A stretch of 64,000 nucleotides of DNA from sequence record OR842557. One strand, written 5' to 3'. Made by a program: the position numbers and the translations under genes. A model generated the notes under the pieces. That model was not told where the DNA came from and ran no database searches. It was given only the letters and a program-made list of their open reading frames with translations. Below are positions 3,872 to 40,872 of the stretch, one piece after another (positions within the stretch are counted from its first letter, which is position 1; each line of letters opens with the position of its first letter). The stretch comes from Escherichia phage 04086.

Positions 3872-4588
3872 TTATTGAGGCTTCATTTTGCAGTTATCGA
3901 AATGCCAACGATTCATATTACCGGAATTCCCTTGTTTACCACAATGAGGGCATTCTACCTTCTTTTCTGTTTTTTTGCGCCCGTTAGGATTTTCCTTACA
4001 AAAAACTTTATGAGACGCAATAACACAGGATTTTCCTGAAAGGCCACAGAATTCACATTCCACAATTTTATAGACCATGTTTTCTAGGCCTTTCTTTATT
4101 TTTAATTTTCGCTCTTCAGATATAGAGCGGTCCACTTTATTAGGGCCTTTAGGGCAGTTATCGAAATGCCATCTGTTCATATTGCCTACCAATCCGGTTT
4201 TGCCGCAGTGTGGACATGTAACTCTAGGCTTTTTTAAAGCGGAAATTGACATTTTCTTTCTGGTTTCTTCCGAGAATTCTTTATCCTTTTGGACTTCTGA
4301 ATTCTTACGACGAAGCCATCCAAATAATTTATTTTTAGACCTATCAGCTTTTGGTGAGCTAACTGTCATCATTCTTGCTGCATAGACTAAGGATGCGTTA
4401 TCTGGATGGATTTTAACTAACAACTGATGAGCCAAGTAATGTTCTTCAGGTGTTAAGTCTACCAAGTTTAAAGCGTCATCCGTCCCACCCATGCATTGTG
4501 GTATAATGTGATGACGTTCTTTATAGGTAGTTAAATTTCTATTAACTGCTCGTTGAATAAGCTTTTCGTATATTGATTTATAATTCAT
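3872..4588 (-). CDS. freestanding HNH homing endonuclease with zinc-finger-like repeats
   Basis: HNH core ERHHIIPQCMGG..N..EEH; CPHCGK..GNMNRWHFDNC occurs twice with a degenerate CxxC copy between; antisense to flanking early genes; first ATG at 4588 preceded by AAGGAT. Confidence 0.8.
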   Translation of the reverse strand: MNYKSIYEKLIQRAVNRNLTTYKERHHIIPQCMGGTDDALNLVDLTPEEHYLAHQLLVKIHPDNASLVYAARMMTVSSPKADRSKNKLFGWLRRKNSEVQKDKEFSEETRKKMSISALKKPRVTCPHCGKTGLVGNMNRWHFDNCPKGPNKVDRSISEERKLKIKKGLENMVYKIVECEFCGLSGKSCVIASHKVFCKENPNGRKKTEKKVECPHCGKQGNSGNMNRWHFDNCKMKPQ

Positions 4589-4624
4589 TATCAAATCCTT
4601 ATTTGATACAGCGACCGATAAAGA

Positions 4625-6300: not shown

Positions 6301-7260
6301 ATGCTTACAGTAAACAATAATGAATTCATGTGGGAACAGAAATATCGTCCAGGTACTTTATCTGAGTGTATTCTGCCGGCGCATGATAAAGAAACCCTCC
6401 AAGCCATTGTTAATAAGGGCCTAATCCCTAACATTATCCTAGTCTCTGCTTCACCAGGCACAGGTAAAACTACCGTAGCTAAAGCATTGTGTGCTGATAC
6501 AAATTCAGATATGCTGTTTGTTAACGGTTCTGACTGCCGTATTGATTTCGTTCGTAATGAACTTACTCGTTTTGCATCTTCAAAATCTATCGAAGGTAAA
6601 CGTAAGGTAATTGTTATCGACGAATTCGACCGTGCCGGTGTTGCTGAAGCTCAACGTCACCTTCGTTCGTTCTTAGAAGCCTATTCCTCAAACTGTTCTG
6701 TAATTATTACAGCAAACAATATTGATGGTATTATCGGCCCACTTCAATCCCGTTGTCGCGTTATTAAATTTGGTGAAGCCACTCCAGCCGACCAAACATC
6801 CATGATGAAAGAAATGATTCATCGTGCTGTAGCAATCTGTAAAAACGAAAATATCGAAGTCGAAGACCTTAAAGTTATTGCTGCTTTAGTTAAACAAAAC
6901 TTTCCTGACTTCCGTAAAACAGTTAACCAACTGGACCGTTACTCATCCAGTGGTAAAATAGATACAGGCATTTTGAGTATTGTAATGAATACCAATTCGC
7001 CTATTGATGAAGTAGTGGCTGCCCTGAAAGATAAAAACTTTAAAGAACTCCGGGCATTAGCTCCACGTCACGTCAATGACTATTCCAACTTTATTATGTC
7101 ACTGGCTAACGAACTCTATGGTAAATTGCCTGGACCAAGCATTGTTAGAATGTACGAAATTGTCGGTGAAAATAACCAATACCACGGTATTGCGGCTAAC
7201 CCAGAAATTCACATGACTTATCTGTTCATCCAACTTGCTCTGGAGCTCCAATGGCTATAA
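6301..7260 (+). CDS. 44: clamp loader large subunit gp44 (AAA+)
   Basis: Walker A SPGTGKTT, Walker B VIVIDEFD; 319 aa. Confidence 0.92.
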   Translation: MLTVNNNEFMWEQKYRPGTLSECILPAHDKETLQAIVNKGLIPNIILVSASPGTGKTTVAKALCADTNSDMLFVNGSDCRIDFVRNELTRFASSKSIEGKRKVIVIDEFDRAGVAEAQRHLRSFLEAYSSNCSVIITANNIDGIIGPLQSRCRVIKFGEATPADQTSMMKEMIHRAVAICKNENIEVEDLKVIAALVKQNFPDFRKTVNQLDRYSSSGKIDTGILSIVMNTNSPIDEVVAALKDKNFKELRALAPRHVNDYSNFIMSLANELYGKLPGPSIVRMYEIVGENNQYHGIAANPEIHMTYLFIQLALELQWL

Positions 7261-7823
7261 GTCTTTTTGATGATGACGTTGAACTGAACGAACATGAAGT
7301 TGCTTGGAAACAACGTAACGATGCTGCTATTCAAGCCTTGGCCGATTCATTTAAAGAAAAGGCTGAAAACGAATTGTTTGCCATTATGAACGATATCACA
7401 TATGGTAAGAACCAACGTAACTTGGCTCAGTCGGAAAACTATAATCAATTTTGGCTCGATAATAGTTTGAGCCAACATGTGGATTGCATTATGCAAGCTG
7501 CAATGGTTAACTGTTTGAAACTTGATGACCAAAGTCATTTTAACTATCTTTTACACGCGGTTCCTAAGGGTAAGAGATTTGGTAAATGGGCTAAGGCCCA
7601 TGATGATGAAGTTAGTGTAGTTTTTATTACTCGTTTATTGATGAAATACCATTCAATTAATAATGATGACGCTTATCGTTATCTCGAGACTTATAAAATT
7701 AAAGGCCATCTTCCTGCAGTGCTTAAGAAGATGAAAGGGTTGGTTACGGACGAATTCCTTAAATCCGTAACCAAAAATGTTAAAGAACAAAAAGACTTGA
7801 AAAAGAAAGCATTGGAATGGTAA
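7251..7823 (+). CDS. 62: clamp loader small subunit gp62
   Basis: overlaps gene 44 end; ~190 aa; synteny. Confidence 0.85.
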   Translation: MAISLFDDDVELNEHEVAWKQRNDAAIQALADSFKEKAENELFAIMNDITYGKNQRNLAQSENYNQFWLDNSLSQHVDCIMQAAMVNCLKLDDQSHFNYLLHAVPKGKRFGKWAKAHDDEVSVVFITRLLMKYHSINNDDAYRYLETYKIKGHLPAVLKKMKGLVTDEFLKSVTKNVKEQKDLKKKALEW

Positions 7824-8193: not shown

Positions 8194-8400
8194 ATGAGTT
8201 CAATAACCCAACTTCAAGTATCCGATATGGGTGGGATTAAAATTCCTGCTCCTAGTTGGATTAATCTTCCAATTGACGAACAGATACAGCATCAAGTTAA
8301 ATTGGCTTTATCCGAAAGTCAAGAACCACGTGCTATTATGGTCTTCACATATGATAAAGACCGTCATCCTCAAATGCAACGTCAGGTTATTGAAATTTAA
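8194..8400 (+). CDS. hypothetical protein (68 aa) in regA-43 intergenic region
   Basis: ORF only; no recognisable motifs. Confidence 0.3.
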   Translation: MSSITQLQVSDMGGIKIPAPSWINLPIDEQIQHQVKLALSESQEPRAIMVFTYDKDRHPQMQRQVIEI

Positions 8401-8403
8401 GCA

Positions 8404-8434
8404 AAGGGACTTCGGTCCCTTTTTGGAGTATAAT
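8404..8434 (+). terminator. hairpin + T-run followed by TTGGAGTATAAT (terminator and/or gene 43 operator/promoter)
   Basis: AAGGGAC-TTCG-GTCCCTT then TTTT then TTGGAGTATAAT, ~50 nt upstream of gene 43 ATG. Confidence 0.5.
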
Positions 8435-8482
8435 AATTCATCAACAAACAAAAGACAATCACTCGTCTATAAAGGAAATGAA

Positions 8483-11194
8483 ATGCAAGAATTCTATTTG
8501 ACAGTCGAACAAATCGGTGATAATATTCTCGAACGTTACATCGATAAAAATGGTAACGAACGTAGTCGTGAAGTTCCATACAAGCCTACAATGTTTATGC
8601 ATGCTAATCCAGAGCAAGCCGTAAAATACATTGATATCTATGGTAAGGGTTGTGTTAAGAAAGAATTCGACTCTATGCGTGATGCATCCCAATGGATGAA
8701 ACGTATGGATGATATGGGCCTCGAAGCCCTGGGTATGGACGACTATAAATTAGCCTATTTGTCTGATACCTATCGTAAAGAAATCAAATATGATTCTTCT
8801 AAGATTCGTATTGCTAACTTCGACATCGAGGTAACATCTCCTGATGGATTCCCTGAACCAGCTCAGGCTAAACATCCTATCGATGCCATTACCCACTACG
8901 ACTCGATTGACGATAAATTCTATGTATTCGACCTTTTAGTTTCGCCTTATGGTACTGTTGAAGAGTGGTCGATTAAAATCGCTGAGAAACTCCAAGACGA
9001 AGGTGGTGACGAAGTTCCACAGGAAATCATTGACAAAATCGTTTATCTTCCGTTTAATTCTGAAGAAGAAATGATGCTTGAGTATCTGAATTTCTGGCAA
9101 CAGAAAACTCCTGTGATTTTGACTGGATGGAACGTTGAATCATTTGACGTGCCGTACGTTTATAACCGTCTGAAAAATCTGTTCGGTGAGAACACTGCTA
9201 AGCGATTAAGCCCACATCGTAAAACTCGTGTTAAAGTTATCGAGAACATGTACGGTGCTCGTGAAATCATTACTTTGTTCGGCATCTCTGTTCTGGATTA
9301 TATCGACCTCTATAAAAAATTCAGCTTCACCAACCAGCCTTCTTATTCTCTGGATTATGTTTCTGAATATGAATTGAAAGTAGGTAAGTTGAAATATGAT
9401 GGTCCAATCTCCAAGTTACGTGAGACGAACCACCAACGATATATTTCCTATAATATTATCGACGTATATCGTGTAGTGCAGATTGATATGAAACGCCAGT
9501 TCATTCTTCTGAGTTTGGACATGGGTTATTATGCTAAGATGCAGATTCAGTCGGTGTTTAGTCCAATTAAGACTTGGGACGCTATTATCTTTAATAGCCT
9601 TAAAGAGCAAGGCAAGGTAATTCCACAAGCTCGTTCACACGTGGTTCAACCTTATCCTGGTGCTTTCGTTAAGGAACCTATTCCTAACGCTTACAAATAT
9701 GTAATGAGTTTCGACCTTACATCTCTGTACCCGAGTATCATTCGACAAGTGAATATAAGCCCAGAGACCATCGCAGGGACATTCGCTAACGCACCGATAC
9801 ATGAATATATTGCCGGAACAGCTCCGCGTCCTAGCGACGTCTACAGTTGCTCTCCTAACGGCATGATGTACTATAAAGACCGCGATGGTGTGATTCCTAC
9901 AGAAATCACTAAGGTGTTCTTACAACGTAAAGAACATAAAGGTTATATGCTTGCAGCTCAACGTAATGGTGAGTTAATTAAAGAAGCATTAGAAAATCCT
10001 AATCTCTCGGCTGATAGTCCACTGGATATCGATTATCGTTTTGACTTCTCTGACGAAATCAAAGCCAAGATTAAAACGCTGTCAGCACCTTCTTTAAGAG
10101 AAATGTTGTTCAGAGCTGAACGTACCGAAGTTGCAGGTATGACTGCTCAGATTAACCGTAAGTTGCTTATCAACTCCCTTTATGGTGCACTTGGTAACGT
10201 ATGGTTCCGTTATTACGACCTCAGGAACGCAACTGCAATCACACTGTTTGGTCAAATGGCCCTCCAATGGATTGAACGTAAGGTTAACGAATATCTGAAT
10301 AGCGTGTGTAAGACTGAAAATCAGAAGTTCGTGCTCTATGGTGATACTGACTCCATTTATGTTAAGGCGGATGCAATCATCAATAAAGTAGGCGAAGACA
10401 AATTCCGTGATACTAACCACTGGGTTGACTTCTTAGATAAATTTGCACGTGAACGTATGGAACCGGCTATTGATGCAGGCTTCCGTGAGATGTGCGAGTA
10501 CATGAACAACAAACAGCACTTGATGTTCATGGACCGAGAAGCTATCGCAGGTCCTCCACTTGGTTCTAAAGGTCTTGGTGGATTCTGGACAGGTAAGAAA
10601 CGTTATGCACTGAACGTTTGGGACATGGAAGGTACTCGTTATGCCGAACCGCACTTGAAAATCATGGGCCTCGAAACTCAGAAATCAAGTACACCTAAAG
10701 CAGTTCAGAAAGCTCTGAAGGAATGTATCCGTCGTATGCTTCAGGAAGGTGAGGCATCTTTGCAAGAATATTTCAAACAGTTTAATAAGGAATTTAACGA
10801 ACTCAACTATGTAAGCATTGCAGCAGTATCCAGTGCTAACAACATCGAGAAATATAATGAAGGTGGATTCCCGGGTTCTAAATGTCCATACCACATCAAA
10901 GGTTGCTTAGCTTACATGCGTGCTTCTGCAGGTGATTTGACTATGCCTCGTATCGTTGATGGTGAAAAGGTATATGTACTGCCACTTAAAGAAGGCAACC
11001 CATTCGGTGAAGCATGTATGGCATGGCCGTCAGGTATTGAACTCCCGATTCAGATTCGTGACCAAGTCCTCCGTTGGATGGACTACAACGTACTGTTCCA
11101 AAAGACCTTTATCAAACCTCTGACCGGTTTTACCGAGTCTGCTAAAATCGACTACGAGAAAAAAGCAACATTATTTGACATGTTCGACTTTTAA
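8483..11194 (+). CDS. 43: DNA polymerase gp43 (family B)
   Basis: exo I FDIE, DLTSLYPS, KLLINSLYG, YGDTDS; 903 aa; start at MQEFYL with AAAGGA RBS (ORF-track 5' extension rejected). Confidence 0.95.
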   Translation: MQEFYLTVEQIGDNILERYIDKNGNERSREVPYKPTMFMHANPEQAVKYIDIYGKGCVKKEFDSMRDASQWMKRMDDMGLEALGMDDYKLAYLSDTYRKEIKYDSSKIRIANFDIEVTSPDGFPEPAQAKHPIDAITHYDSIDDKFYVFDLLVSPYGTVEEWSIKIAEKLQDEGGDEVPQEIIDKIVYLPFNSEEEMMLEYLNFWQQKTPVILTGWNVESFDVPYVYNRLKNLFGENTAKRLSPHRKTRVKVIENMYGAREIITLFGISVLDYIDLYKKFSFTNQPSYSLDYVSEYELKVGKLKYDGPISKLRETNHQRYISYNIIDVYRVVQIDMKRQFILLSLDMGYYAKMQIQSVFSPIKTWDAIIFNSLKEQGKVIPQARSHVVQPYPGAFVKEPIPNAYKYVMSFDLTSLYPSIIRQVNISPETIAGTFANAPIHEYIAGTAPRPSDVYSCSPNGMMYYKDRDGVIPTEITKVFLQRKEHKGYMLAAQRNGELIKEALENPNLSADSPLDIDYRFDFSDEIKAKIKTLSAPSLREMLFRAERTEVAGMTAQINRKLLINSLYGALGNVWFRYYDLRNATAITLFGQMALQWIERKVNEYLNSVCKTENQKFVLYGDTDSIYVKADAIINKVGEDKFRDTNHWVDFLDKFARERMEPAIDAGFREMCEYMNNKQHLMFMDREAIAGPPLGSKGLGGFWTGKKRYALNVWDMEGTRYAEPHLKIMGLETQKSSTPKAVQKALKECIRRMLQEGEASLQEYFKQFNKEFNELNYVSIAAVSSANNIEKYNEGGFPGSKCPYHIKGCLAYMRASAGDLTMPRIVDGEKVYVLPLKEGNPFGEACMAWPSGIELPIQIRDQVLRWMDYNVLFQKTFIKPLTGFTESAKIDYEKKATLFDMFDF

Positions 11195-11196
11195 GT

Positions 11197-11239
11197 GTTT
11201 ACATACCACAAGGAACGTGGTAGTATCCTTCCTATCAAC
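11197..11239 (+). promoter_or_regulatory. early promoter (GTTTAC -35, TAGTAT -10, downstream CCTATCAAC box)
   Basis: sigma70-like hexamers; member of repeated promoter family. Confidence 0.6.
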
Positions 11240-11256
11240 TACATGAGGAAATTACA

Positions 11257-11493
11257 ATGGAAGCTTTAATCGTTAGTGCTGGTGTTTTAGGATTCGGTTC
11301 TCTGGTTATTATGTTCATCGGTTACTTTTTACCATGGATTCTGGCTCTTCTGCGAGGCACTCGTAGTAATGTAGGAATTTTCTTCCTTAATCTCCTGTTA
11401 GGCTGGACGATGATTGGTTGGGTAGTGGCTTTAATCTGGGCTATCGTCGCTGAACGTAAATCAAACGCACAAATCATTATTGTTAAACAATGA
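11257..11493 (+). CDS. imm: probable superinfection immunity membrane protein Imm
   Basis: 78-aa two-TM protein with LLGWT..GW..AL.WA motif; adjacent to gene 43 as in T4. Confidence 0.55.
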   Translation: MEALIVSAGVLGFGSLVIMFIGYFLPWILALLRGTRSNVGIFFLNLLLGWTMIGWVVALIWAIVAERKSNAQIIIVKQ

Positions 11494-11627
11494 AAATAAT
11501 TGTTTTATTTCTTATAATGGCTGCCTTTACCGTTTATTGGGCAGTGGCAATTCCACCAATGATTCCGACACTAATCATCGGATGGATTATTCTTATAGCA
11601 CAAATTAAGTATAACTGTTTTAATTGA
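11490..11627 (+). CDS. small hydrophobic membrane peptide (45 aa)
   Basis: ATGA overlap with imm stop; entirely hydrophobic; below ORF-track cutoff. Confidence 0.35.
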   Translation: MKIIVLFLIMAAFTVYWAVAIPPMIPTLIIGWIILIAQIKYNCFN

Positions 11628-11634
11628 GGATATT

Positions 11635-12135
11635 ATGAAAAAGTTAATTATCGCAATGAGTATGCTCCTATCAGGTTGCGCGGTCCAATATGGTGATGCA
11701 GTTTCGGCTGATGAAGTTGGTAAAGCTCGTATCGCAGCTGAACAGAAACAATTCGATGGCGAAATGAAATTCCGTGCCGGTTCTGGACTTGTGTATACCC
11801 GAGCTAATAATCAATGCGGTAATAACTGTGCAAAATATGCTCAACGAGAAATTGAATTCCAACGTGAACAAGAGTCCAAGCGTGAAGCGGTACTAGCCAA
11901 ACACCAGGCAGAAATGAAGCGCCAAGATGATTTGTACAAAAAGCAGAAACTGTATGCGATGTGCGTAAACCATATCAATCTACAGATTTCCATCCATGAG
12001 GCTCGTTATTACGAAATGCTCGAAACTGAGAGCTTCGGTAAAGCTCGTGATTATAAGAAACAAATCGATAAGCTCAAGACCAAAGTACCAGCGGCAATAG
12101 AACAGTGTATTGAAATCGGTAAAGATAAGATTTAA
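11635..12135 (+). CDS. predicted lipoprotein (166 aa)
   Basis: signal peptide with lipobox LLSGC; charged coiled-coil-like mature region. Confidence 0.6.
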   Translation: MKKLIIAMSMLLSGCAVQYGDAVSADEVGKARIAAEQKQFDGEMKFRAGSGLVYTRANNQCGNNCAKYAQREIEFQREQESKREAVLAKHQAEMKRQDDLYKKQKLYAMCVNHINLQISIHEARYYEMLETESFGKARDYKKQIDKLKTKVPAAIEQCIEIGKDKI

Positions 12136-12195
12136 GCAATACCAATTTATTAAAAATAGTGTATAATGTACCTACATTCACTTGAGGAACAGATA

Positions 12196-13869
12196 ATGAA
12201 AAAGGTTGTTATTTTAGGCGCGGGTCTTGGCTCACGGTTGTATCCAATTACCAACGAAATCCCGAAGGTACTGGTTAACTACAAACAACATACCGTATTA
12301 AAACATTTGTACGATTTGTATAGTAACCAATCGGATGAAATTATTCTGGTTATTCACAGCAAATTTAACGACCTCGTTAAAGGCTATATTAAATCCATTA
12401 ACATGATTAATAGTGATAAGCCTAAATTCACTATTCGTAACGTAGACGTGGCCAATGGTTCAGCTCATGCTATCGATTGCATTGCTGAAGATATCATTGG
12501 GCACAATGTCCTGTTTAACTGGTGTGACATCATTCCTGAAGGTCATAAGGTTGAGTGGGATAACGACTATTGCTATACTTACGGGACTGACTGTCGTTTT
12601 ACATTTGAAGAACCGTACTTGCGTGAAATTGGTACTGGCGGTGGTGTGGTTGGTTTGTATCAGGTGGCTAATTGGACAGGTTTTAACGGTCTGTATTATG
12701 GCGAAGACCTGGCCGACAACCTGGATTCAATGGTCCATTTGACTGAACGTAAGCTGGACTTTGTGGTTGATGTCGGTGACAAATTGAAACTGGCCAAGGC
12801 CCATGAAGATTCTGAAATTAACCGTGAATTTAATAAATTAGAGTTCACTGAGAATCTGGCTATTAAAGTACCAACTAACGAATTGGGTAAAGAAATCCAA
12901 TCTAAAGAAATCAATTGGTATAATTCTATTGATTCTGAATTCGTTCCTAGCATTGTAGACTTTGCTCCAGGCGAATTCATTAAAATGGAACGTATCTTTG
13001 GTCGTACCATGGCAGATGCCTACCGGTTTATGTCTAAAGAAACCAAAGTCCTCATGGTTTATAAGGTCATTAGTGCATTGCGTTCATTCGGCGGAACTAT
13101 CGATAACCCATCCGATGAGCAATGGTATTCTGATGTTAAGAAAGAAGTATTGGACAAGGTCCTTATTCGTAATGCTTCTATTGCCGGATTGATTGAAGGC
13201 TTTGCTCCACAGGGCATTACCCATGTTAACGACTTCAAGGTAGGCGACCCTGAAAAGCTTCTCCGTCACGCACTAGAAATTCTGTCTGAACATAAAGAAC
13301 CGTACCAACTTATTCATGGTGACCCGCACTACAGTAATATTATGCTGTCGGACGAAGGTGATATTAAAATCATCGACCCGCGTGGTTATTTTGGTAATAG
13401 TTCTAAAGGCCCTGCGATTTATGACGAAGCTAAGGTGCTTTATTCTATCGATGGTTATGACAAATTTAACTCTGACCCTCTATGGGGTGGTTTAACTCGT
13501 AACGGGACCCGTGTATTCGTTGATATTGAAAAGGTTATGCCTTTAGATGATATTCCAATGTGTACATTTAAGCACAAGCTCTGGATTGCTGTTATCTGGA
13601 TGGCATTGGCAGGTTACTTTAAAAATAACCCTCTGAAAGCTCTGGGTGCTTATTACAACGGTCTATATCAACTGAGTGTGCTGCTTAAGCGGCATCCTCG
13701 TAAGCGTAAGCTTATTACAGGTGAATTTGTCGATGAAGTTCGTGACCCTATTACGGCTCAAATTATCACTCGTTGTCCTGATAAGTGGGTTTTGCTTGAC
13801 CAGGAAACTGGTGTAAAATATAAACCTACAGGTTCTACTGAACTCCACAAACAATGGAAGAAAATTTAA
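12196..13869 (+). CDS. bifunctional nucleotidyltransferase / APH-like (anomeric sugar or alcohol) kinase
   Basis: N-terminus VVILGAGLGSRLYPITNEIPKVLV (GxGxRL..PK nucleotidyltransferase signature); C-terminus HGDPHYSNIM + IIDPRGYFG (Brenner motif of APH/choline-kinase fold); start at MKKVVIL with GAGGAA RBS (track start 12166 sits inside TATAAT). Confidence 0.75.
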   Translation: MKKVVILGAGLGSRLYPITNEIPKVLVNYKQHTVLKHLYDLYSNQSDEIILVIHSKFNDLVKGYIKSINMINSDKPKFTIRNVDVANGSAHAIDCIAEDIIGHNVLFNWCDIIPEGHKVEWDNDYCYTYGTDCRFTFEEPYLREIGTGGGVVGLYQVANWTGFNGLYYGEDLADNLDSMVHLTERKLDFVVDVGDKLKLAKAHEDSEINREFNKLEFTENLAIKVPTNELGKEIQSKEINWYNSIDSEFVPSIVDFAPGEFIKMERIFGRTMADAYRFMSKETKVLMVYKVISALRSFGGTIDNPSDEQWYSDVKKEVLDKVLIRNASIAGLIEGFAPQGITHVNDFKVGDPEKLLRHALEILSEHKEPYQLIHGDPHYSNIMLSDEGDIKIIDPRGYFGNSSKGPAIYDEAKVLYSIDGYDKFNSDPLWGGLTRNGTRVFVDIEKVMPLDDIPMCTFKHKLWIAVIWMALAGYFKNNPLKALGAYYNGLYQLSVLLKRHPRKRKLITGEFVDEVRDPITAQIITRCPDKWVLLDQETGVKYKPTGSTELHKQWKKI

Positions 13870-14228
13870 TGCATCTGTGTTTTGATATCGATAATACCAT
13901 TACTCACTGGCAAGATGACCGTGATTACGAAAACTTTAAACCGGACACCGAAATGGTGTCCATGATTAATAAGCTTTATGACGAAGGTCACGAGATTACA
14001 TTGTTCACTGCTCGTGGTATGACTTCATGTGGCCCTGGTCGAATCTTGGTTGAAGTAGTTCCTGCATTGGTTAAGAACCTTGAAAAGATCGGATTGAAAT
14101 ATCATAATCTGCTTACACATAAGCCGAGTTATACTTTTATCATCGATGACCGAGCAATCCGTCCTGACCATTTTAAAGAAATGGTTCGTGAAGGAACTCT
14201 TGAAACCTATAAGGCATATCATCCGTGA
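13869..14228 (+). CDS. HAD-superfamily phosphatase (small)
   Basis: motif I FDIDNTIT near N-terminus, LFTAR, IIDDR; start overlaps upstream stop (TAATG). Confidence 0.7.
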   Translation: MHLCFDIDNTITHWQDDRDYENFKPDTEMVSMINKLYDEGHEITLFTARGMTSCGPGRILVEVVPALVKNLEKIGLKYHNLLTHKPSYTFIIDDRAIRPDHFKEMVREGTLETYKAYHP

Positions 14229-14761
14229 ACCCAAAAATCATTGTTATCGACGGCCCGGATAATTCCGGGAAGTCTACTTTAATTGAATCACTTTTATCTG
14301 ATAAGAAATATCGTCTTATTGATTTCCCTAAAAAGATTAATGGCAAATGCATTTCATTAGGGACTGATAATGACAAGGCTTTAGTCGAGACGTTGTATAA
14401 GTTTTTAGACCCTAATTTCGTTTACATCCTTGACCGTGGTTATCCAAGTAATATAGTTTACTCGGGATTCCTTCGTGGTGAAATGGACCCTTATGTAGAA
14501 CTAGCAGATTGGATTGATTTCAAAAAAGAATTCAATATCATTGAGATTATTTTAACCCGTAATCCACTGGATAAAGACTTCGAAGACGACCTTATTAAAT
14601 TAACCAAAGATGAGTTCAACTTAACTATCCAAAAATATGAAGACTGTTTTAAAAATGTTTTTAAAGTTTTAAACCATGACGGATATAATAACTTGCTTAA
14701 CGTCGATATGGTAGAATTAAAACGTCTGAATGAATATATTGAAAATAAGGTGAATAAATGA
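14225..14761 (+). CDS. thymidylate-kinase-like P-loop (d)NMP kinase
   Basis: P-loop IDGPDNSGKST and DRGYPSNIVY (TMK DRY-like); GTG start overlapping upstream stop. Confidence 0.65.
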   Translation: MNPKIIVIDGPDNSGKSTLIESLLSDKKYRLIDFPKKINGKCISLGTDNDKALVETLYKFLDPNFVYILDRGYPSNIVYSGFLRGEMDPYVELADWIDFKKEFNIIEIILTRNPLDKDFEDDLIKLTKDEFNLTIQKYEDCFKNVFKVLNHDGYNNLLNVDMVELKRLNEYIENKVNK

Positions 14762-15456
14762 AACACATTACCGCTGTTAGTTTTGAAAACGCGTTTAAGC
14801 AAATGAACGAAGAAATCCTGGAAGCTCCACAGTTTGCAGTTGATTCTCGTATCGGCCGTTGTTATGAAATCGGTTCTGCTTCGGTAGAAGTACTGGATGC
14901 AAGCACCTATAAATTCACCGACCCTCGTATTAATCGTATCAACTATGATTATGCCGAATCTTTCTGGAAGTTTATGATTTCCGGTGGTACTGATGCCGCC
15001 GAAGCATTTAAGGAATACCCTAATGTTGCTAAGTTCATTGATAAGCCGAAAAGTGACGTATTGCCTGCAAACTTCAACACTTTCTATGGACCTCGAATTG
15101 TGGCCCAACTCCCAGCCCTACTTAAAGAGCTTAAAGAAAAGCCTAACTCGAGACGAGTTGTGTTCCAAATTCTCCAAGAACAAGACCAAGCCCTCCTTGA
15201 TTCTGACGAATCCTTAGAATATCCGTGTACCGATTCGGTAACATATTATATTCGTGATGGACGTCTGTATGCACACACTCATATGCGTTCACAGAACTGT
15301 GCTATCGTTATGCAGCTGGATTTCTATCTGCAGGGTAAACTGATGGCCTTTATTGCTGAACAGTGTGGTGTTGGTCTGGGTACGTATTCCCATACTATGG
15401 TTAGTGCACATGTATTTGAACGTGATTTTAACTACGTTCGAGGATTCCTGAAATGA
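14758..15456 (+). CDS. 42: thymidylate-synthase-fold pyrimidine hydroxymethylase (gene 42-like, divergent)
   Basis: PNSRR, catalytic Cys in EYPCTD, HMRSQN...QLD with Asp at the cytosine-specifying position; syntenic with T4 gene 42. Confidence 0.6.
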   Translation: MKHITAVSFENAFKQMNEEILEAPQFAVDSRIGRCYEIGSASVEVLDASTYKFTDPRINRINYDYAESFWKFMISGGTDAAEAFKEYPNVAKFIDKPKSDVLPANFNTFYGPRIVAQLPALLKELKEKPNSRRVVFQILQEQDQALLDSDESLEYPCTDSVTYYIRDGRLYAHTHMRSQNCAIVMQLDFYLQGKLMAFIAEQCGVGLGTYSHTMVSAHVFERDFNYVRGFLK

Positions 15457-16346
15457 GTTTGTTTATCGTTCCTATTTTCAGTATGCGTAGTTACGAAACA
15501 GGTGAATATGCCGTCCTTAAGGACGGCAATTTTCAACTCCATTTAAACCGTGCTTGCCCAGGTGATTATCTGGCTTATCCTAGAAATTCGAGCGATATCA
15601 AAGAATGTATTGAATTATTTCCTGAACTGAATTTCGTGCCGCTTTGGTATAAAGAAAATGCTTATGAGACCCGTAAACATTTTTGGTCCGAAAATGAGTT
15701 TGTCGTTGATTCGTTAATCGAATACTATGACTGCTCGGGATTAGTAACCGATATCACTGGTTATGATGGTGCTCAGACTGTACAATTCAACTTTAACATT
15801 ACAATGGACCCTGAAGTTCCTCGTTATTACATCGATGAGTTTATTGATACCGACGTGTCTTCAGTTGAACGTTCGATTTATACTACAGTCTTGAACCAAT
15901 GTCAGAAAGACGTCCTGGTGTCACGAGGTGTGTCCTCTGATAAGATTTTTGTAGACCAAAAGGTAATTAATCCGGCAGTAATTGAGCGTTACTCTGAAGG
16001 TCTAGCGCCTATTAAAATTGATGGTATTTTCCACCCATTCCGTATTTCGGATAAGTGTTATCAATTCGAAAGAGTTGTAGACCAAGCTGCGGCTGAAGGT
16101 GCTCGTCTTTATATCACCGACCCGAATGATTCGTTTAAACGTGAAGACTATCGTCCTGATGTAGAGATTATTAAATTCAAACCGAGTAAGGTTGAATATT
16201 ATCAGATTCTGAAATCAAGACCCCATATCATTTATCATGAGAACCCTGGTTTAGTATTCCATCCTGGTCTAGCTGAATTCATTTATTTCGGTGCCCATAT
16301 CCATTCCGAGCACGAAATGCCAAGTTATGAGGACGTGGTCCTTTAA
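15453..16346 (+). CDS. unknown protein in beta-gt syntenic slot (candidate DNA-modifying transferase)
   Basis: 297-aa ORF between TS-like gene and uvsX; no similarity to T4 beta-gt that I can recognise; function is inference from position. Confidence 0.55.
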   Translation: MSLFIVPIFSMRSYETGEYAVLKDGNFQLHLNRACPGDYLAYPRNSSDIKECIELFPELNFVPLWYKENAYETRKHFWSENEFVVDSLIEYYDCSGLVTDITGYDGAQTVQFNFNITMDPEVPRYYIDEFIDTDVSSVERSIYTTVLNQCQKDVLVSRGVSSDKIFVDQKVINPAVIERYSEGLAPIKIDGIFHPFRISDKCYQFERVVDQAAAEGARLYITDPNDSFKREDYRPDVEIIKFKPSKVEYYQILKSRPHIIYHENPGLVFHPGLAEFIYFGAHIHSEHEMPSYEDVVL

Positions 16347-16377
16347 CGCTGTAAATGTGAAGTGATATAATTACCCT
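16342..16377 (+). promoter_or_regulatory. uvsX promoter-like element containing GTGATATAATTACCCT
   Basis: perfect TATAAT; same 16-mer recurs upstream of gene 32. Confidence 0.45.
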
Positions 16378-16423
16378 ATCTTAAAACGTGAGTAAAATAT
16401 AATGATGCCTATGGAAAAATATA

Positions 16424-17596
16424 ATGTCTGATTTAAAATCCCGTTTGATTAAAGCTTCTACTTCTAAAATGACTGCCGACCTGACCAAATCTAAATTGTT
16501 TAATGGTCGTGACGAAGTTCCTACTCGTATCCCTATGCTGAATATTGCATTAGGTGGTGCGTTGAATGCAGGCTTACAATCAGGTTTGACAATCTTTGCT
16601 GCTCCATCTAAACACTTTAAAACGTTGTTTGGACTTACCATGGTTGCGGCATATATGAAGAAATATCCAGACGCAATTTGTTTGTTCTATGACTCTGAGT
16701 TCGGTGCTTCAGAATCTTATTTCCGTTCGATGGGTGTTGATTTGGAACGTGTGGTTCATACACCAATCCAGTCAGTCGAACAGCTGAAGGTTGATATGAC
16801 CAACCAGTTAGAAGAAATTACTCGTGGCGAAAAGGTTATTATCTTTATCGACTCCATTGGTAACACTGCTTCTAAGAAAGAAACCGAAGATGCTTTGAAC
16901 GAGAAAGTTGTAGGTGATATGACTCGTGCTAAGTCACTGAAATCTCTGTTCCGTATCGTAACACCTTATCTGACCATCAAGGATATCCCTTGCGTAGCAA
17001 TTAACCACACTGCTATGGAAATTGGTGGAATGTACCCTAAAGAGATTATGGGTGGCGGTACTGGTATTCTGTACTCTGCTTCTACCGTGTTCTTTATCTC
17101 TAAACGCCAAGTTAAAGATGGTACCGAGCTCACAGGTTACGACTTCACACTGAAGGCAGAGAAATCTCGTACGGTTAAAGAGAAATCAACGTTCCCTATC
17201 ACCGTTAACTTCGAAGGCGGCATTGACCCATTCAGTGGATTGCTTGAAATGGCTACTGATATCGGTTTTGTTGTGAAACCTAAAGCTGGTTGGTATAATC
17301 GTGCATTCCTTGACGAAACCACAGGTGAAATGGTTCAAGAAGAAAAAGCATGGCGTGCTAAAGCTACCGATTGTGTTGAGTTCTGGGGACCGCTGTTTAA
17401 ACATGCTCCGTTCCGTGAAGCAATCGAGAATAAGTATAAGCTTGGTGCAATTAATTCTATTAAAGAAGTTGACGATGCGGTAAATGACCTTATTAACTCT
17501 CGTGTCTCTAAGAACGTTGCTGTTAAATTAAGCGGAAATACCCAAAGCGCCGCTGATATCGAAAACGATTTAGAAGAGATGGATTTAGATGACTGA
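16424..17596 (+). CDS. uvsX: recombinase UvsX (RecA-like)
   Basis: 390 aa; RecA-fold ATPase motifs; strong similarity to T4 UvsX as recalled. Confidence 0.95.
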   Translation: MSDLKSRLIKASTSKMTADLTKSKLFNGRDEVPTRIPMLNIALGGALNAGLQSGLTIFAAPSKHFKTLFGLTMVAAYMKKYPDAICLFYDSEFGASESYFRSMGVDLERVVHTPIQSVEQLKVDMTNQLEEITRGEKVIIFIDSIGNTASKKETEDALNEKVVGDMTRAKSLKSLFRIVTPYLTIKDIPCVAINHTAMEIGGMYPKEIMGGGTGILYSASTVFFISKRQVKDGTELTGYDFTLKAEKSRTVKEKSTFPITVNFEGGIDPFSGLLEMATDIGFVVKPKAGWYNRAFLDETTGEMVQEEKAWRAKATDCVEFWGPLFKHAPFREAIENKYKLGAINSIKEVDDAVNDLINSRVSKNVAVKLSGNTQSAADIENDLEEMDLDD

Positions 17597-22340: not shown

Positions 22341-23585
22341 ATGTCATATGTCGATAGAGAATTTGCTGTACGTGCCTTGAATTACCAACCTAAATTCAGA
22401 CAAGTAACTGGTAGTGATTTTAAATTAAACTGTCGTTGCCGTGTATGTGGCGACTCCCTAAAAGATGAGAACAAAGCTCGTTTTTGGGCCTATCCAGCCA
22501 ATGACGGCTCCGTAATGCTGCACTGTTTTAACTGTGATTATTCAGCAGGAATTAAGAAGTACCTATACGAATACGAGCCTGATTTATATCGCGAATATAT
22601 TCTTGAGAAACATAAAGAGCAATCGTTCGGGAGACAAGCTGCACCTAAGGTGGAGATATCTGAAAAAATTAAAGCTAAGATGCCTGTCATCGAAAAGCTT
22701 AATTTCTGTGAACGATTAGATAGGATGCCGAAGGACCATCCTATTATCAAATATGTAACACTACGTTGCATTCCTGAAAACAAATGGAATCGGCTGTGGT
22801 TTACTAAAGAATGGCCTGCANNNAAACATAAAGAGCAATCGTTCGGGAGACAAGCTGCACCTAAGGTGGAGATATCTGAAAAAATTAAAGCTAAGATGCC
22901 TGTCATCGAAAAGCTTAATTTCTGTGAACGATTAGATAGGATGCCGAAGGACCATCCTATTATCAAATATGTAACACTACGTTGCATTCCTGAAAACAAA
23001 TGGAATCGGCTGTGGTTTACTAAAGAATGGCCTGCATTAGTTAACTCTGTGAATCCAGGGACCTATTCTAAAGAAATGCCTGAGCCTCGTTTGGTTATTC
23101 CAATTTTCAATAAGAATAAACAAATTGAAAGTTTTCAGGGTCGAGCCTTACGTAAAGATGCTCCACAAAAATATATTACAATAAAAGCTCATGACCAAGC
23201 TACAAAAATATATGGAATGGATACAGTTGACGAACGTCAATTGGTCTGGGTAATGGAAGGTCCTATCGATTCATTATTCGTACCGAATGCAATAGCAATT
23301 ACTGGTGGGTCATTGGACTTGGCTATAGTTCCATGTAAAGAAACTCGTGCCTGGGTAATGGACAATGAACCCCGCCATCCTGACACAATTAAGCGTATGC
23401 AACGATTAGTTGATGCTGGCGAAAGGGTTCTATTCTGGGACAAGGCTCCATGGCCTTCTAAAGATATAAATGATATGATTATGAAAGATAAAGCTGATAT
23501 AAATGATGTACTGGCATATATGAAAGCTAATATAGCCCAAGGTCTAATGGCTAAAATGAGACTTTCGAAATATTCCAAAATTTAG
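22341..23585 (+). CDS. 61: DNA primase gp61
   Basis: N-terminal zinc ribbon CRCRVCGD...CFNCDY, TOPRIM region, C-terminal ...AQGLMAKMRLSKY; N-junction duplication at 22821. Confidence 0.93.
   Translation: MSYVDREFAVRALNYQPKFRQVTGSDFKLNCRCRVCGDSLKDENKARFWAYPANDGSVMLHCFNCDYSAGIKKYLYEYEPDLYREYILEKHKEQSFGRQAAPKVEISEKIKAKMPVIEKLNFCERLDRMPKDHPIIKYVTLRCIPENKWNRLWFTKEWPAXKHKEQSFGRQAAPKVEISEKIKAKMPVIEKLNFCERLDRMPKDHPIIKYVTLRCIPENKWNRLWFTKEWPALVNSVNPGTYSKEMPEPRLVIPIFNKNKQIESFQGRALRKDAPQKYITIKAHDQATKIYGMDTVDERQLVWVMEGPIDSLFVPNAIAITGGSLDLAIVPCKETRAWVMDNEPRHPDTIKRMQRLVDAGERVLFWDKAPWPSKDINDMIMKDKADINDVLAYMKANIAQGLMAKMRLSKYSKI
22608..23033 (+). repeat. N-flanked near-identical duplication (N at 22821-22823), likely artefact
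   Basis: ~213-bp unit of gene 61 repeated. Confidence 0.7.
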
Positions 23586-23874: not shown

Positions 23875-24616
23875 ATGGCTCATTTTAATGAATGTTCTCA
23901 ACTGATTGCAGGTGTTGATAAAGCTGAGGAAGCTTATTTTAATGCTCTGATTCACGAAGATAAAGACCCTCTGCAGGTTATGCTTGATATGCAGAAATCT
24001 TTGCAGGTCCGTTTATCTAAAGATAAACCTGAATATAACCGTCATCCTGATGACTTGGCCACTGCAGGTGAAGTTGTTGATTGGTTGCGTAATCAGAAAG
24101 ATTATATTGATGACGAATTCCGCGAACTTCTGACTTCTCTTGGTGGCATGAGCAATGGCGAAAAAGATGCATCTGCAGTATGGAAGCCTTGGAAAGCTCA
24201 ACATGCTGAACGTCGTGAAACCTTGATTAACGATTTGTCTCCTGAAGACCAGCTCGAAATTAAATTNTGATGATTTGGCTACTGCAGGTGAAGTTGTTGA
24301 TTGGCTGCGTAATCAGAAAGATTATATTGATGATGAATTCCGTGAACTTCTGACTTCTCTTGGTGGTATGAGCAATGGTGAAAAAGATGCATCTGCAGTA
24401 TGGAAGCCTTGGAAAGCTCAACATGCTGAACGTCGTGAAACCTTGATTAACGATTTGTCTCCTGAAGACCAGCTCGAAATTAAATTCGAAATGATTGATA
24501 TTCTGCACTTTGTTCTGAATATGTTCCAGGGTCTTGGACTGACTGCTGAAGAAATCTTTAAACTGTATTATCTGAAAAATGCCGAGAACTTTGCTCGTCA
24601 AGACCGAGGTTATTAA
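23875..24616 (+). CDS. 56: dCTPase/dUTPase gp56 (MazG-like NTP pyrophosphatase)
   Basis: all-alpha NTP-PPase acidic motifs (DDEFRELL, EMIDILHF); ~172 aa once duplication at 24267 is removed. Confidence 0.75.
24048..24486 (+). repeat. N-flanked near-identical duplication (N at 24267), likely artefact
   Basis: ~218-bp unit repeated. Confidence 0.7.
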
Positions 24617-26085: not shown

Positions 26086-26756
26086 ACTTGAATTCCACGT
26101 ACGTGATTCTTCAGGTCAAACACGCCCTTATGATGCTACAGCGTGTCTTATCCTTGTCGATAATGGTATGAATTCTATAACCCAGTTAGAAACACGATTA
26201 AAAGATATTAAGCTGCCAGAAAATATTATGATGAAGGCATATCATAATAAAAATGTTGATGTTGCTGAAGGTTGTCCTTTTAGCCTGGCTGAAGCATTAC
26301 ATATCAAGGGCTATCGATATCCGGCAGACCCATATGCCGAAGGAACAATGGACATTTTCTATAAAGATACCGATAGAATGTCCAACGAACGTCTTAAAGG
26401 TCGTACTTATCTGATTTCAGCTACCGAAGACCTTACTGAAGTCGAACGTCAGATTTGGAAACACTTTGATATTGGATTGCGCTTTACCATGACTGAAGAC
26501 NNNCTATCGATATCCGGCAGACCCATATGCCGAAGGAACAATGGACATTTTCTATAAAGATACCGATAGAATGTCCAACGAACGTCTTAAAGGTCGTACT
26601 TATCTGATTTCAGCTACCGAAGACCTTACTGAAGTCGAACGTCAGATTTGGAAACACTTTGATATTGGATTGCGCTTTACCATGACTGAAGACGCTATTC
26701 GTGATGCTAAGGTGCGAGCTCGTATGTACGAGTACGGTCCTATCGGTGGTTACTAA
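26072..26756 (+). CDS. hypothetical protein (~163 aa after removing duplication)
   Basis: ORF with N-junction duplication at 26501. Confidence 0.5.
26311..26691 (+). repeat. N-flanked near-identical duplication (N at 26501-26503), likely artefact
   Basis: ~190-bp unit repeated. Confidence 0.7.
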
Positions 26757-39705: not shown

Positions 39706-40872
39706 ATGTACAATATTAAGTGTCTGGCTAAATCTGAACAAGAGAAAGTAGTTTCCCTCTATAAATCCGGTAATTATACTCAGCAAGAATTAGCTGACTG
39801 GTATAGTGTTTCGGTTGATACCATTCGTAAAGTCCTGAAAAATGCTGAAGAAGCTAAACGTTCTCAAGTGGCTAAAGAATTAGCCGAATCTCTTAAAAAA
39901 GCACCTACTGTACCTCTTAACGCCCCAACAGAAGTGGTTATTACTGGAAATATCAAAGTAACGGTTCCTAACGAGCCTCGTGTAGTTCCGGTTGATATTA
40001 CTATTGGTGGTTCTCGTCCAGAAATTATCTGGAATGCTAGTTCTAAATTCGTGTCCATCACCGAAGGCCGTACAGTATGGAACACCACTAATAAGAACAA
40101 ACATTTTGATGCCATCGTACAGGCTCTTAAAGAATCTCGTTTTGACGACGCGATTAAACTGATTTCCATTAAAGAAGCTGTTAAGGCCTTCGTCAAAGGT
40201 AACGTTCGTATTGAAGGCGGACGTCTGGTTTATCAAGGTATCGAATTGCGTTCCGGTTTGATTGACCGTATTATCACCTCAATGGAAAATGGCGAAGACT
40301 TCGAATTCTACCTGCCGTTCCTTGAGAACCTGTTAGAAAACCCAAGTGAAAAAGCTGTACAGCGTCTGTTCGACTTCTTGGTCGCGAACGATATCAAAAT
40401 CACTGAAGACGGCCACTTTATCACATGGAAGGTGGTTAACTCCGATTACACCGACTGCCGTACTGGTACGTTTGATAANNNTGAAAAAGCTGTACAGCGT
40501 CTGTTCGACTTCTTGGTCGCGAACGATATCAAAATCACTGAAGACGGCCACTTTATCACATGGAAGGTGGTTAACTCCGATTACACCGACTGCCGTACTG
40601 GTACGTTTGATAACTCACCAGGCAAACCGGTTAAAATGCCTCGTTCACGTGTAAACAATGACGACACAGTAACTTGTTCAAGCGGTCTACACGTTTGCTC
40701 TCGTAGCTATATCGGCGCATTTGGTAATTCAAACAACCGTGTAGTTTCATGTAAAGTTAACCCACGTGATGTTGTTAGTATTCCTGTTGATTATGGCGAT
40801 GCTAAAATGCGCGTATGTTATTATGAAGTTCTGGAAGACGTTACCGATCAGTTTAAATCAGATTTACGTTAA
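39706..40872 (+). CDS. rIIB: rIIB protein
   Basis: N-terminal MYNIKCL...GNYTQQELADW; N-junction duplication at 40479. Confidence 0.9.
   Translation: MYNIKCLAKSEQEKVVSLYKSGNYTQQELADWYSVSVDTIRKVLKNAEEAKRSQVAKELAESLKKAPTVPLNAPTEVVITGNIKVTVPNEPRVVPVDITIGGSRPEIIWNASSKFVSITEGRTVWNTTNKNKHFDAIVQALKESRFDDAIKLISIKEAVKAFVKGNVRIEGGRLVYQGIELRSGLIDRIITSMENGEDFEFYLPFLENLLENPSEKAVQRLFDFLVANDIKITEDGHFITWKVVNSDYTDCRTGTFDXXEKAVQRLFDFLVANDIKITEDGHFITWKVVNSDYTDCRTGTFDNSPGKPVKMPRSRVNNDDTVTCSSGLHVCSRSYIGAFGNSNNRVVSCKVNPRDVVSIPVDYGDAKMRVCYYEVLEDVTDQFKSDLR
40347..40613 (+). repeat. N-flanked near-identical duplication (N at 40479-40481), likely artefact
   Basis: ~130-bp unit repeated in rIIB. Confidence 0.7.

Follow-up and report, generated by a model that had tools for sequence, protein, structure and literature searches.

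A gene module of Escherichia phage 04086 is very likely the Dhakavirus version of the arabinosyl-5-hydroxycytosine DNA hypermodification pathway

Arabinosyl-5-hydroxycytosine (ara-5hoC) DNA hypermodification is known from phages RB69, HY126 and DLP3 and from Serratia phages, and the pathway has been described in three papers from 2025–2026 (He et al. 2026, Lee et al. 2026, Mahler et al. 2025). Synthesis of NDP-arabinose from arabinose-5-phosphate is published for the RB69, HY126 and DLP3 clusters (PMC13326640), and Dhakaviruses are named among the genera with a syntenic cluster (Lee et al., NAR 2026; PMC13326640). An older report of arabinosyl-hydroxymethylcytosine in RB69 has since been revised, the modification having been re-determined as an ether on 5-hydroxycytosine (5hoC; PMC13390438). 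In the biochemistry of He et al. as relayed by Lee et al., donor synthesis proceeds in the order kinase (arabinose-5-phosphate to arabinose-1,5-bisphosphate), phosphatase (to arabinose-1-phosphate) and uridylyltransferase. Phosphorylation of 5hodCMP has been shown for the RB69 gp1-type dNMP kinase (Lee et al.). T4 (gp42, alpha-gt, beta-gt) instead relies on folate-dependent hydroxymethylation and on host UDP-glucose, and therefore needs no sugar-activation genes, whereas the locus described here encodes a hydroxylase by orthology and would make its own donor.

The DNA analysed (the window) is a 64,000-nucleotide stretch of Escherichia phage 04086 (OR842557), a Dhakavirus and T4-like coliphage whose DNA is 96–97% identical to that of phages KIT01 and Bp7. 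Between imm and uvsX lie six plus-strand ORFs, at the positions and between the flanks given by an initial annotation, whose title counted five genes against six ORFs in its own list. Upstream of the module are DNA polymerase gp43 (8231–11194), imm (11257–11493; Pfam Imm_superinfect, 5e-18) and a 45-aa ORF; uvsX (16424–17596), gp40 and gp41 follow downstream, with 98% identity to annotated Bp7 genes. The window contains 24 N positions, none inside the module region. Sequence comparison makes all five enzymes of the module orthologues of RB69/HY126 cluster members, and the slot between gp43 and uvsX is common to the clusters of RB69, HY126, 92A1, LC53, DLP2 and the window. Overlaps at the last four junctions (of 16 nt, followed by GTGA, ATGA and ATGA) suggest translational coupling of the five enzyme genes. 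The region is very likely the Dhakavirus version of the ara-5hoC pathway; orthology, intact catalytic motifs, diagnostic residues and the GT-B fold were obtained in this analysis, and the chemistry is that of the literature on orthologues. The phage-encoded activation of a sugar donor that the initial annotation had proposed is borne out by five orthologues of published clusters, here as activation of a pentose alongside a modified-cytosine synthase and a transferase, and so is its candidate, NDP-arabinose from arabinose-5-phosphate. Its suggestion of a novel pathway is superseded by the three papers above.

In the base branch, gp56 dCTPase would make dCMP, a 232-aa enzyme would use flavin and O2 to hydroxylate C5 of dCMP, kinases would raise 5hodCMP to the triphosphate, with a 178-aa thymidylate-kinase-like enzyme as putative helper, and the phage polymerase would incorporate 5hodC in place of C. 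The hydroxylation is assigned to a thymidylate-synthase-fold dCMP 5-hydroxylase (5hodCMP synthase; 14758..15456, plus strand, 232 aa), orthologous to RB69 gp48, which matches Pfam Thymidylat_synt at 8e-14 and is 78–79% identical to the RB69 and HY126 orthologues (78% to RB69 gp48). It matches PDB 9iqu/9iqc/9ir2 at an E value of about 7e-125, versus 4e-6 for T4 dCMP hydroxymethylase; within the 9iq PDB series, in which only 9iqz is explicitly labelled "phage HY126", the window's matches are 9iqc/9iqu/9ir2 (hydroxylase) and 9iqw (phosphatase). In an alignment with E. coli ThyA numbering, the enzyme retains the catalytic Cys146 and carries L143E, D169N and N177D; the true thymidylate synthase of Bp7 retains D169 and N177. 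D169N is a signature of 5-hydroxy-dCMP synthases (PMC13326640), validated by Lee et al. as diagnostic in nine further homologues. By orthology the protein is a flavin/O2 hydroxylase that falls in the hydroxylase clade rather than the gp42 clade, and not the gp42-like hydroxymethylase originally proposed. Because it carries this signature, the sugar would be attached to 5-hydroxycytosine via an ether bond and not to hydroxymethylcytosine, so that the early idea of an activated sugar decorating a modified cytosine stands, with a base other than the one proposed. As in RB69 and HY126, both gp56 and a gp1 dNMP kinase are encoded elsewhere in the genome, away from the cluster; gp56 has an accessory part, providing dCMP and excluding dCTP from the DNA. 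A tblastn search with Bp7 gp56 places the gene 56 dCTPase/dUTPase at 23875..24616 (plus strand) with matches in two frames. The gene is broken by an assembly artefact, the frame break being accounted for by a 219-nt direct repeat whose copies (24048–24266 and 24268–24486) are 97% identical and lie on either side of an N at 24267; relatives have one copy.

In the sugar branch, the kinase half of a 557/567-aa protein would phosphorylate D-arabinose-5-phosphate at C1, a 124-aa HAD phosphatase would take off the 5-phosphate, and the nucleotidyltransferase half would make UDP-arabinofuranose. The fused protein (12166..13869, plus strand, 567 aa), a bifunctional sugar-1-phosphate nucleotidyltransferase and APH-like sugar kinase, is orthologous to HY126 AfhE (557 aa aligned at 42.7% identity, 416 bits) and RB69 gp52:53 (43%/41% to p053/p052). 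Its N-terminal nucleotidyltransferase domain (about residues 11–225) and C-terminal kinase domain match Pfam NTP_transferase (2.5e-8) and APH (1.3e-5), phrog_4098 matches across the full length at 6e-269, and the motifs GAGLGSRL...IPK (nt 12217–12276), HGDPHYSN (13315–13338) and IIDPRG (13369–13386) are present. The true start is most likely ATG 12196, giving 557 aa, because this codon is preceded by GAGGAA at a distance of 8 nt and because alignments with the orthologues and with phrog_4098 begin at residue 11. The small HAD-superfamily phosphatase (13854..14228, plus strand, 124 aa) is orthologous to HY126 AfhF and RB69 gp51, with 63% identity to RB69 gp51 and to PDB 9iqw_A (E 3.8e-54), and has a DxDxT motif, FDIDNT (nt 13881–13898), and a DD motif (14139–14153); its predicted reaction is conversion of arabinose-1,5-bisphosphate to arabinose-1-phosphate. 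It also matches the NCBIfam EcbF-BcbF capsule phosphatase model (5e-14). Pfam and PHROGs profiles uphold the initial family calls (NTP_transferase/APH, HAD, thymidylate-kinase-like, Thymidylat_synt), the HAD and P-loop/thymidylate-kinase matches being weak in Pfam and strong in PHROGs (phrog_1238, 6e-42; phrog_761, 3e-39).

The transfer step involves a 297-aa protein (15453..16346, plus strand) that had zero matches in Pfam and NCBIfam searches and had been called an unrelated protein in the beta-gt position. Structure prediction models it as a GT-B fold glycosyltransferase, and it is orthologous to RB69 gp46:47 and DLP3 gp79 ("arabinosyltransferase 1"). The HY126 counterpart is nearer to the window's protein (66% identity) than to the GT1 of 92A1, an arabinosylating phage (46%), or to that of DLP2 (48%), a Lazarusvirus that stands in for DLP3 in this comparison. 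From its orthology and modelled fold, the enzyme is predicted to attach the first arabinose to the 5-hydroxyl of 5-hydroxycytosine, filling the beta-gt role. The thymidylate-kinase-like P-loop nucleotide kinase (14225..14761, plus strand, 178 aa), an orthologue of RB69 gp45 (37% identity) with P-loop GPDNSGKST (nt 14252–14278) and LDRGY (14429–14443), is conserved, in all the clusters examined, alongside TS-like/GT1 or HAD genes. It might have a different role: the first arabinose could be added before replication on 5hodCMP, with this protein as a dedicated arabinosyl-5hodCMP kinase and the polymerase using the glycosylated nucleotide. Hydroxylase, first transferase and this kinase occur together in every cluster examined, including that of Rhizobium phage RL38J1, a hexose rather than arabinose user (Lee et al. 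Table 1). Since the RB69 gp1-type kinase already handles 5hodCMP, no task is assigned to the second kinase, and in the data of Lee et al. single transferases showed no activity on 5hoC-DNA and addition of the first arabinose to nucleotide or to DNA was indistinguishable. This order of events is nonetheless unlikely, as the window's kinase is coupled to the phosphatase and not to the transferase. To our knowledge, all characterised T-even glycosylations occur on DNA after replication. Later arabinoses are likewise added on DNA in vitro (Lee et al.).

The cluster has the same five enzymes as those of RB69 and HY126 (Mosigviruses, Afh genes) but differs in order and content. The kinase gene follows the phosphatase gene rather than the transferase gene, and the isomerase position is taken by imm, the 45-aa ORF and a lipoprotein. 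Neither the window nor the whole Bp7 genome has the arabinose-5-phosphate isomerase (gp55), the U32-family protein (gp50), gp49 or the second arabinosyltransferase (gp3) of RB69, and a chorismate mutase is likewise missing from both. The lipoprotein (11635..12135, plus strand, 166 aa; LSGC lipobox at nt 11665–11679; phrog_1754, function unknown), originally listed as part of the module, is a mere neighbour in a variable slot, outside the pathway: its homologues are in Gaprivervirus VR7 (50%) and Salmonella phages S16 and STML-198 (33%), it is also present in phages without the modification cluster, and it has no counterpart in the RB69 and HY126 cluster regions. The closest fused-enzyme sequences outside Dhakavirus, from Klebsiella phage Marfa (80%) and Providencia phage PSTCR6 (72%), belong to clusters with the same isomerase-less order, in which the fused-enzyme, phosphatase and kinase genes are followed by those for the hydroxylase and the transferase, Marfa differing in a U32-family "peptidase" between kinase and hydroxylase.

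Isomerase-less clusters might instead activate another pentose phosphate, such as ribose-5-phosphate, or use another nucleotide carrier, giving a non-arabinose pentosyl-5hoC. Besides the missing isomerase and altered gene order, this would fit the phage records, about 363 with the fused enzyme versus 276 with an isomerase homologue, the 25 Klebsiella (Marfavirus-type) records being essentially missing from the latter. It would also fit the divergence of the two components that differ most, the fused enzyme (45–50% identical to four reference orthologues, versus 53–73% among those four) and the kinase (35–41% versus 44–68%). The fused enzyme nevertheless retains its full two-domain architecture and motifs, and the identities of the transferase and phosphatase fall in the range spanned by the enzymes of reported ara-5hoC phages. 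Arabinose-5-phosphate for Kdo is made via KdsD/GutQ in E. coli, Klebsiella and Providencia, and this host supply makes a phage isomerase dispensable in principle. A different pentose is accordingly quite improbable.

The initial model took a gp42-type hydroxymethylase to make hmdC and a phosphatase-first route like that of MupP/AmgK/MurU to supply an NDP-sugar for hydroxymethylcytosine. The enzyme classes fit (HAD phosphatase, APH-like kinase, MurU/LicC-like nucleotidyltransferase), Lee et al. Table 1 still labels the steps phosphatase-first, MurU models match the N-terminal domain of the fused enzyme weakly (NCBIfam), and MurU is the top Foldseek match for its RB69 and DLP3 orthologues (Lee et al.). 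The likeness to MurNAc salvage, which also leads from sugar phosphate to UDP-sugar, is at the level of fold only; in the account of He et al. given by Lee et al., the phage kinase acts first, on the 5-phosphate sugar, with the phosphatase acting on the 1,5-bisphosphate, and kinase and nucleotidyltransferase are fused. Given also the hydroxylase clade and the revised RB69 chemistry, the model is very improbable here, and it is already contradicted for the RB69/HY126 orthologues. CDP-alcohol or phosphocholine-type chemistry (LicC/LicA-like), separate from DNA glycosylation, can practically be dismissed: LicC is the best solved-structure sequence match of the nucleotidyltransferase domain (1jyk, E 1.7e-4) and the RB69 kinase domain has choline-kinase-like structural matches (Lee et al.), but these resemblances are at fold level only, the 416-bit full-length orthology to a UDP-arabinose enzyme is far stronger, and the gene shares its operon with the hydroxylase and GT-B transferase.

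As the literature yielded no Dhakavirus whose DNA had been analysed chemically, and no such analysis for Marfa or PSTCR6, we infer the identity and number of the sugars in the window's phage from its genes. The local twist on the ara-5hoC pathway is a minimal cluster variant that lacks a second transferase as well as the isomerase, the U32-family protein and chorismate mutase. The pentosyl-cytosine system of Shewanella phage Thanatos provides a published precedent, with one transferase and mono-arabinosylated DNA (Lee et al.). A distant Straboviridae member with a marine host, Thanatos carries a thymidylate-synthase-like gene, a fused enzyme of 561 aa that is 44% identical to the window's, and only one GT-B protein, of 300 aa, to which its authors gave UDP-xylose pyrophosphorylase activity. 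The isomerase-less architecture is a distinct type common to Dhakavirus, Marfavirus and Providencia phage PSTCR6. In the absence of a phage isomerase, host KdsD/GutQ would be the source of arabinose-5-phosphate, and with only one transferase a single arabinose would be added, so the gene content predicts mono-arabinosylation supplied by host arabinose-5-phosphate.

The six plus-strand open reading frames that the initial annotation placed at 11635-16346 are present in the window as described, bordered on one side by the DNA polymerase gene (gp43), imm, and a 45-aa ORF, and on the other by uvsX, gp40, and gp41. At the DNA level, the region is 97.3% identical to that of Escherichia phage KIT01, ~95-96% identical to Bp7, QL01, WG01, MX01, and relatives, and 94.7% identical to IME08; Bp7 belongs to the genus Dhakavirus, not to Mosigvirus, the genus of RB69. 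Overlaps at the last four junctions, of 16 nt between the fused nucleotidyltransferase/kinase gene and the phosphatase gene and of GTGA, ATGA, and ATGA thereafter, give the five enzyme genes the look of a single translationally coupled unit. The 567-aa fused ORF annotated from 12166, like the matching Bp7 annotation, probably starts 30 nt too early: 8 nt ahead of an ATG at 12196 (+) lies a GAGGAA ribosome-binding site, and the first residue of every orthologue corresponds to this ATG. Scans of 11000-16700 returned 19 sigma-70 promoter-like sites against 18.5 expected and two terminator-like sites against 4.3 expected.

Clear orthologues of all five enzymes are found in RB69 and in phage HY126. 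In RB69 and Acinetobacter phage DLP3, cytosine is replaced by mono- to tri-arabinosylated 5-hydroxycytosine, with the sugar ether-linked to C5 (Lee et al., NAR 2026, PMC13326640). The same study names Dhakaviruses among the genera carrying a syntenic cluster, so the pathway and its genus-level occurrence are already known, and the suggestion of a novel hypermodification route falls away. The outline of the initial interpretation, a phage-encoded route to an activated sugar donor for DNA decoration, stands; four elements do not, namely its base, its classing of the thymidylate-synthase-fold enzyme, its order of reactions, and its reading of the 297-aa protein. In place of a hydroxymethyl-pyrimidine, the published orthologous systems use 5-hydroxycytosine (PMC13326640), and the "arabinosyl-hmC" that Thomas et al. 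2018 assigned to RB69 is today regarded as an error. A search of the accessible literature found no chemical data on virion DNA for any Dhakavirus.

For the 232-aa protein at 14758-15456, the Pfam match is a thymidylate synthase domain. This protein is 78% identical to RB69 gp48 and 78.8% identical to its HY126 orthologue, and it matches PDB entries 9iqc, 9iqu, and 9ir2 at E 7e-125, compared with E 4e-6 for T4 gp42 structures. These three entries and 9iqw are recently deposited structures of near-identical Mosigvirus proteins; names in the 9iq series are generic ("Thymidylate synthase", "Capsule biosynthesis protein"), and the label "phage HY126" is explicit only for 9iqz. RB69 gp48 converts dCMP to 5-hydroxy-dCMP (5hodCMP) with oxygen drawn from O2 and a loosely bound flavin, and an Asn in place of E. 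coli ThyA Asp169 is diagnostic of this activity, as validated on nine further homologues (Lee et al., PMC13326640). The window enzyme was aligned with RB69 gp48, E. coli ThyA (264 aa, the expected length), and the true thymidylate synthase of Bp7. In ThyA numbering, it has the catalytic Cys146 and carries L143E, N177D, and D169N, the last being the 5hodCMP synthase signature; the Bp7 thymidylate synthase retains Asp169 and Asn177. Hydroxymethylases of the gp42 clade are folate-dependent and have Asp at position 169, where the window enzyme has Asn. These residues and the weak T4 gp42 score assign the enzyme, by sequence, to the hydroxylase clade and not to the gp42-type hydroxymethylases with which it had been grouped.

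Two accessory activities accompany the hydroxylase: the gp56 dCTPase, which supplies dCMP and is encoded at 23875-24616, and the gp1 dNMP kinase, which takes 5hodCMP toward the triphosphate and is annotated in Bp7 at a position outside the window. The 178-aa thymidylate-kinase-like protein (14225-14761), 37% identical both to RB69 gp45 and to its HY126 orthologue, has a predicted role on the same base branch, because even a Rhizobium phage that uses hexoses encodes such an enzyme together with the hydroxylase and first transferase (PMC13326640).

On the sugar side, both Pfam domains of the fused protein were found, an N-terminal nucleotidyltransferase and a C-terminal APH-type kinase, joined in a single polypeptide as in AfhE. 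The protein aligns end to end with its HY126 orthologue (42.7% over 557 aa), shares 43% and 41% identity with RB69 gp53 and gp52, and has intact catalytic motifs; Thomas et al. 2018 had previously pointed out its IME08 homologue. Adjoining it is a small AfhF-type HAD phosphatase (13854-14228) that carries the DxDxT motif and is 63% identical to RB69 gp51, to the HY126 orthologue, and to PDB 9iqw (E 4e-54). HAD and P-loop matches are weak in Pfam, and PHROGs and NCBIfam agree with the Pfam family calls. In the account of He et al. 2026 available through Lee et al. (PMC13326640), AfhE converts arabinose-5-phosphate (A5P) to the 1,5-bisphosphate, AfhF removes the 5-phosphate, and the N-terminal domain of AfhE then produces UDP-arabinofuranose. 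By that account, the kinase acts first in the orthologues, in reverse of the phosphatase-first order proposed initially. The parallel drawn with MupP/AmgK/MurU salvage extends to enzyme classes only, MurU NCBIfam models scoring 20-24 bits against cut-offs of 250-370. A CDP-alcohol (LicC/LicA) reading was rejected, as the likeness is at the level of fold only.

The 297-aa protein at 15453-16346, described initially as an unrelated protein in the beta-gt position, is an orthologue of the HY126 transferase (66% identity) and of RB69 gp47 and gp46 (69% and 63%). A GT-B glycosyltransferase orthologous to RB69 gp46:47 and DLP3 gp79 lies immediately 3' of the hydroxylase gene. Neither the Pfam search nor a sequence search against solved structures returned a match for it, and fold comparison alone was informative. 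The window transferase is nearer to that of HY126 than the transferases of 92A1 or DLP2 are, which argues for the same donor sugar. The first sugar may be added at the nucleotide level, a point left open by Lee et al. (PMC13326640).

The sixth ORF, the lipoprotein at 11635-12135, carries an LSGC lipobox and falls in phrog_1754 (function unassigned). It was rejected as a pathway member: no counterpart occurs in the RB69 and HY126 clusters, and homologues are found in phages without the cluster (Gaprivervirus VR7 and Salmonella phages S16 and STML-198). It is treated here as a neighbour in a variable slot; since imm adjoins it, a putative role in superinfection exclusion is a reasonable guess.

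The cluster is minimal in composition. Searches by tblastn with RB69 and LC53 queries found no A5P isomerase (KpsF/GutQ-like SIS) in the window or the complete Bp7 genome at E < 0.1, and likewise no U32-family protein, chorismate mutase, or RB69 gp49 homologue was found in the 64-kb window or that genome. No second or third arabinosyltransferase was detected in either with RB69 gp3 and the two extra DLP2 transferases as queries, in a search that would miss very remote GT-B proteins. The gp39-rIIA slot, which houses the second transferase gp3 in RB69, measures ~790 bp in the window. As the isomerase gene is also missing from the Marfavirus cluster locus, it is an accessory, not a universal, feature; across the phage collection, about 363 records have the fused enzyme and 276 an isomerase homologue. 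Gene order differs as well, with the thymidylate-kinase-like gene following the phosphatase in the window and the transferase in RB69. Klebsiella phage Marfa and Providencia phage PSTCR6 share the isomerase-less order of the window, and their fused enzymes share 80% and 72% identity with its own.

A comparison of the window with HY126, 92A1, LC53, and DLP2 identifies two outliers, the window fused enzyme (45-50% identity) and kinase (35-41%); the identities of its hydroxylase, phosphatase, and transferase lie inside the range that the other four show among themselves. Relative to these phages, the fused enzyme (12196-13869) and kinase have together diverged further than any other part of the cluster, and only in the isomerase-less architecture do both adjoin the phosphatase. 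Given this joint divergence and shared adjacency, the kinase may serve the sugar branch and not the base branch. A broader reading draws on the divergent fused enzyme, the relocated and divergent kinase, and the single transferase, and makes the isomerase-less clusters of Dhakavirus, Marfavirus, and PSTCR6 a functionally distinct branch that uses another pentose, another nucleotide carrier, or nucleotide-level glycosylation; we consider this improbable.

Many arabinosylating phages encode a Peptidase_U32-family protein beside the hydroxylase gene, as in RB69 (6493-7662, minus strand, of comparison locus L002) and Marfa (8787-9947 of L012), and in LC53 (12899-14409 of L010) and 92A1 (12441-14085 of L009) it is accompanied by a type II chorismate mutase. 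Among E. coli U32 proteins, RlhA, TrhP, and UbiU/V are O2-independent, prephenate-dependent hydroxylases, and the product of RlhA is 5-hydroxycytidine in 23S rRNA. By analogy, the phage U32 protein and chorismate mutase could together form 5-hydroxycytosine anaerobically; in Lee et al. the sole label for the U32 protein is "sugar or heterocycle reductase" (PMC13326640). Were the isomerase-less clusters a distinct branch, the window version, having no U32 protein, would be wholly O2-dependent for cytosine hydroxylation.

The 24 N bases in the window fall at 14 sites (830-834, 1179, 1552, 5835, 21248, 21482, 22821-22823, 24267, 26501-26503, 26868, 34727, 40479-40481, 44361, and 45224), and at each the flanking sequence is repeated across the N within about 430 nt, marking an unmerged overlap. 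The record looks like a draft assembly of pieces joined untrimmed, and interruptions of ORFs at these sites (for instance around primase, gene 56, rIIB, and gp52) are probably artefacts. Gene 56 (plus strand) is divided between two frames by a 219-nt tandem repeat (24048-24266 and 24268-24486, 97% identity) with the N at 24267. A true split or duplication was rejected, given the N at the junction, the single copy of this stretch in KIT01, JS98, QL01, and other relatives, and the same pattern at every N site. The copies differ at seven positions, each a C/T mismatch, six having C in copy 1 and T in copy 2; speculatively, they stem from base-calling trouble on modified cytosines. Elsewhere in the window, a 240-aa ORF with zinc-ribbon matches (3872-4594, minus strand) lies between the gp46 and gp45 regions, the position held in Bp7 by a gene with a homing endonuclease annotation. 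Several further homing endonuclease genes occur in Bp7 (comparison loci L003, L005, and L006), and JS98 and JS10 are reported to have none.

In the mechanism proposed for this phage, gp56 would supply dCMP for conversion by the 232-aa enzyme to 5hodCMP, which kinases would raise to the triphosphate for incorporation by the polymerase. A5P would come from host KdsD/GutQ, whose supply of this sugar phosphate belongs to established Kdo biosynthesis. The fused enzyme and phosphatase would convert A5P to UDP-arabinofuranose, from which the single GT-B enzyme would add one arabinose. Phage Thanatos provides a published precedent for one transferase and mono-arabinosylation (PMC13326640).

One value of the window is as a corrective for gene names in public Dhakavirus records. 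Most call the cluster genes "hypothetical", "thymidylate synthase", "thymidylate kinase", or "phosphoheptose isomerase". The last is applied to the HAD phosphatase. For the hydroxylase, "thymidylate synthase" and "dCMP hydroxymethylase" are both in use, and the transferase goes under "hypothetical", "RNA polymerase binding protein", or "capsid and scaffold protein"; for all three proteins these names are misleading. Members of Dhakavirus, e.g. LHE83 (PMC10987938), have been characterised as agents against pathogenic E. coli. Arabinosyl-5-hydroxycytosine shields phage DNA from restriction enzymes and CRISPR nucleases and is itself targeted by some modification-dependent defence systems, and it therefore affects host range. 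The minimal, isomerase-less form of the cluster offers a natural test of the gene set sufficient for mono-arabinosylation and of whether host A5P can feed the pathway.
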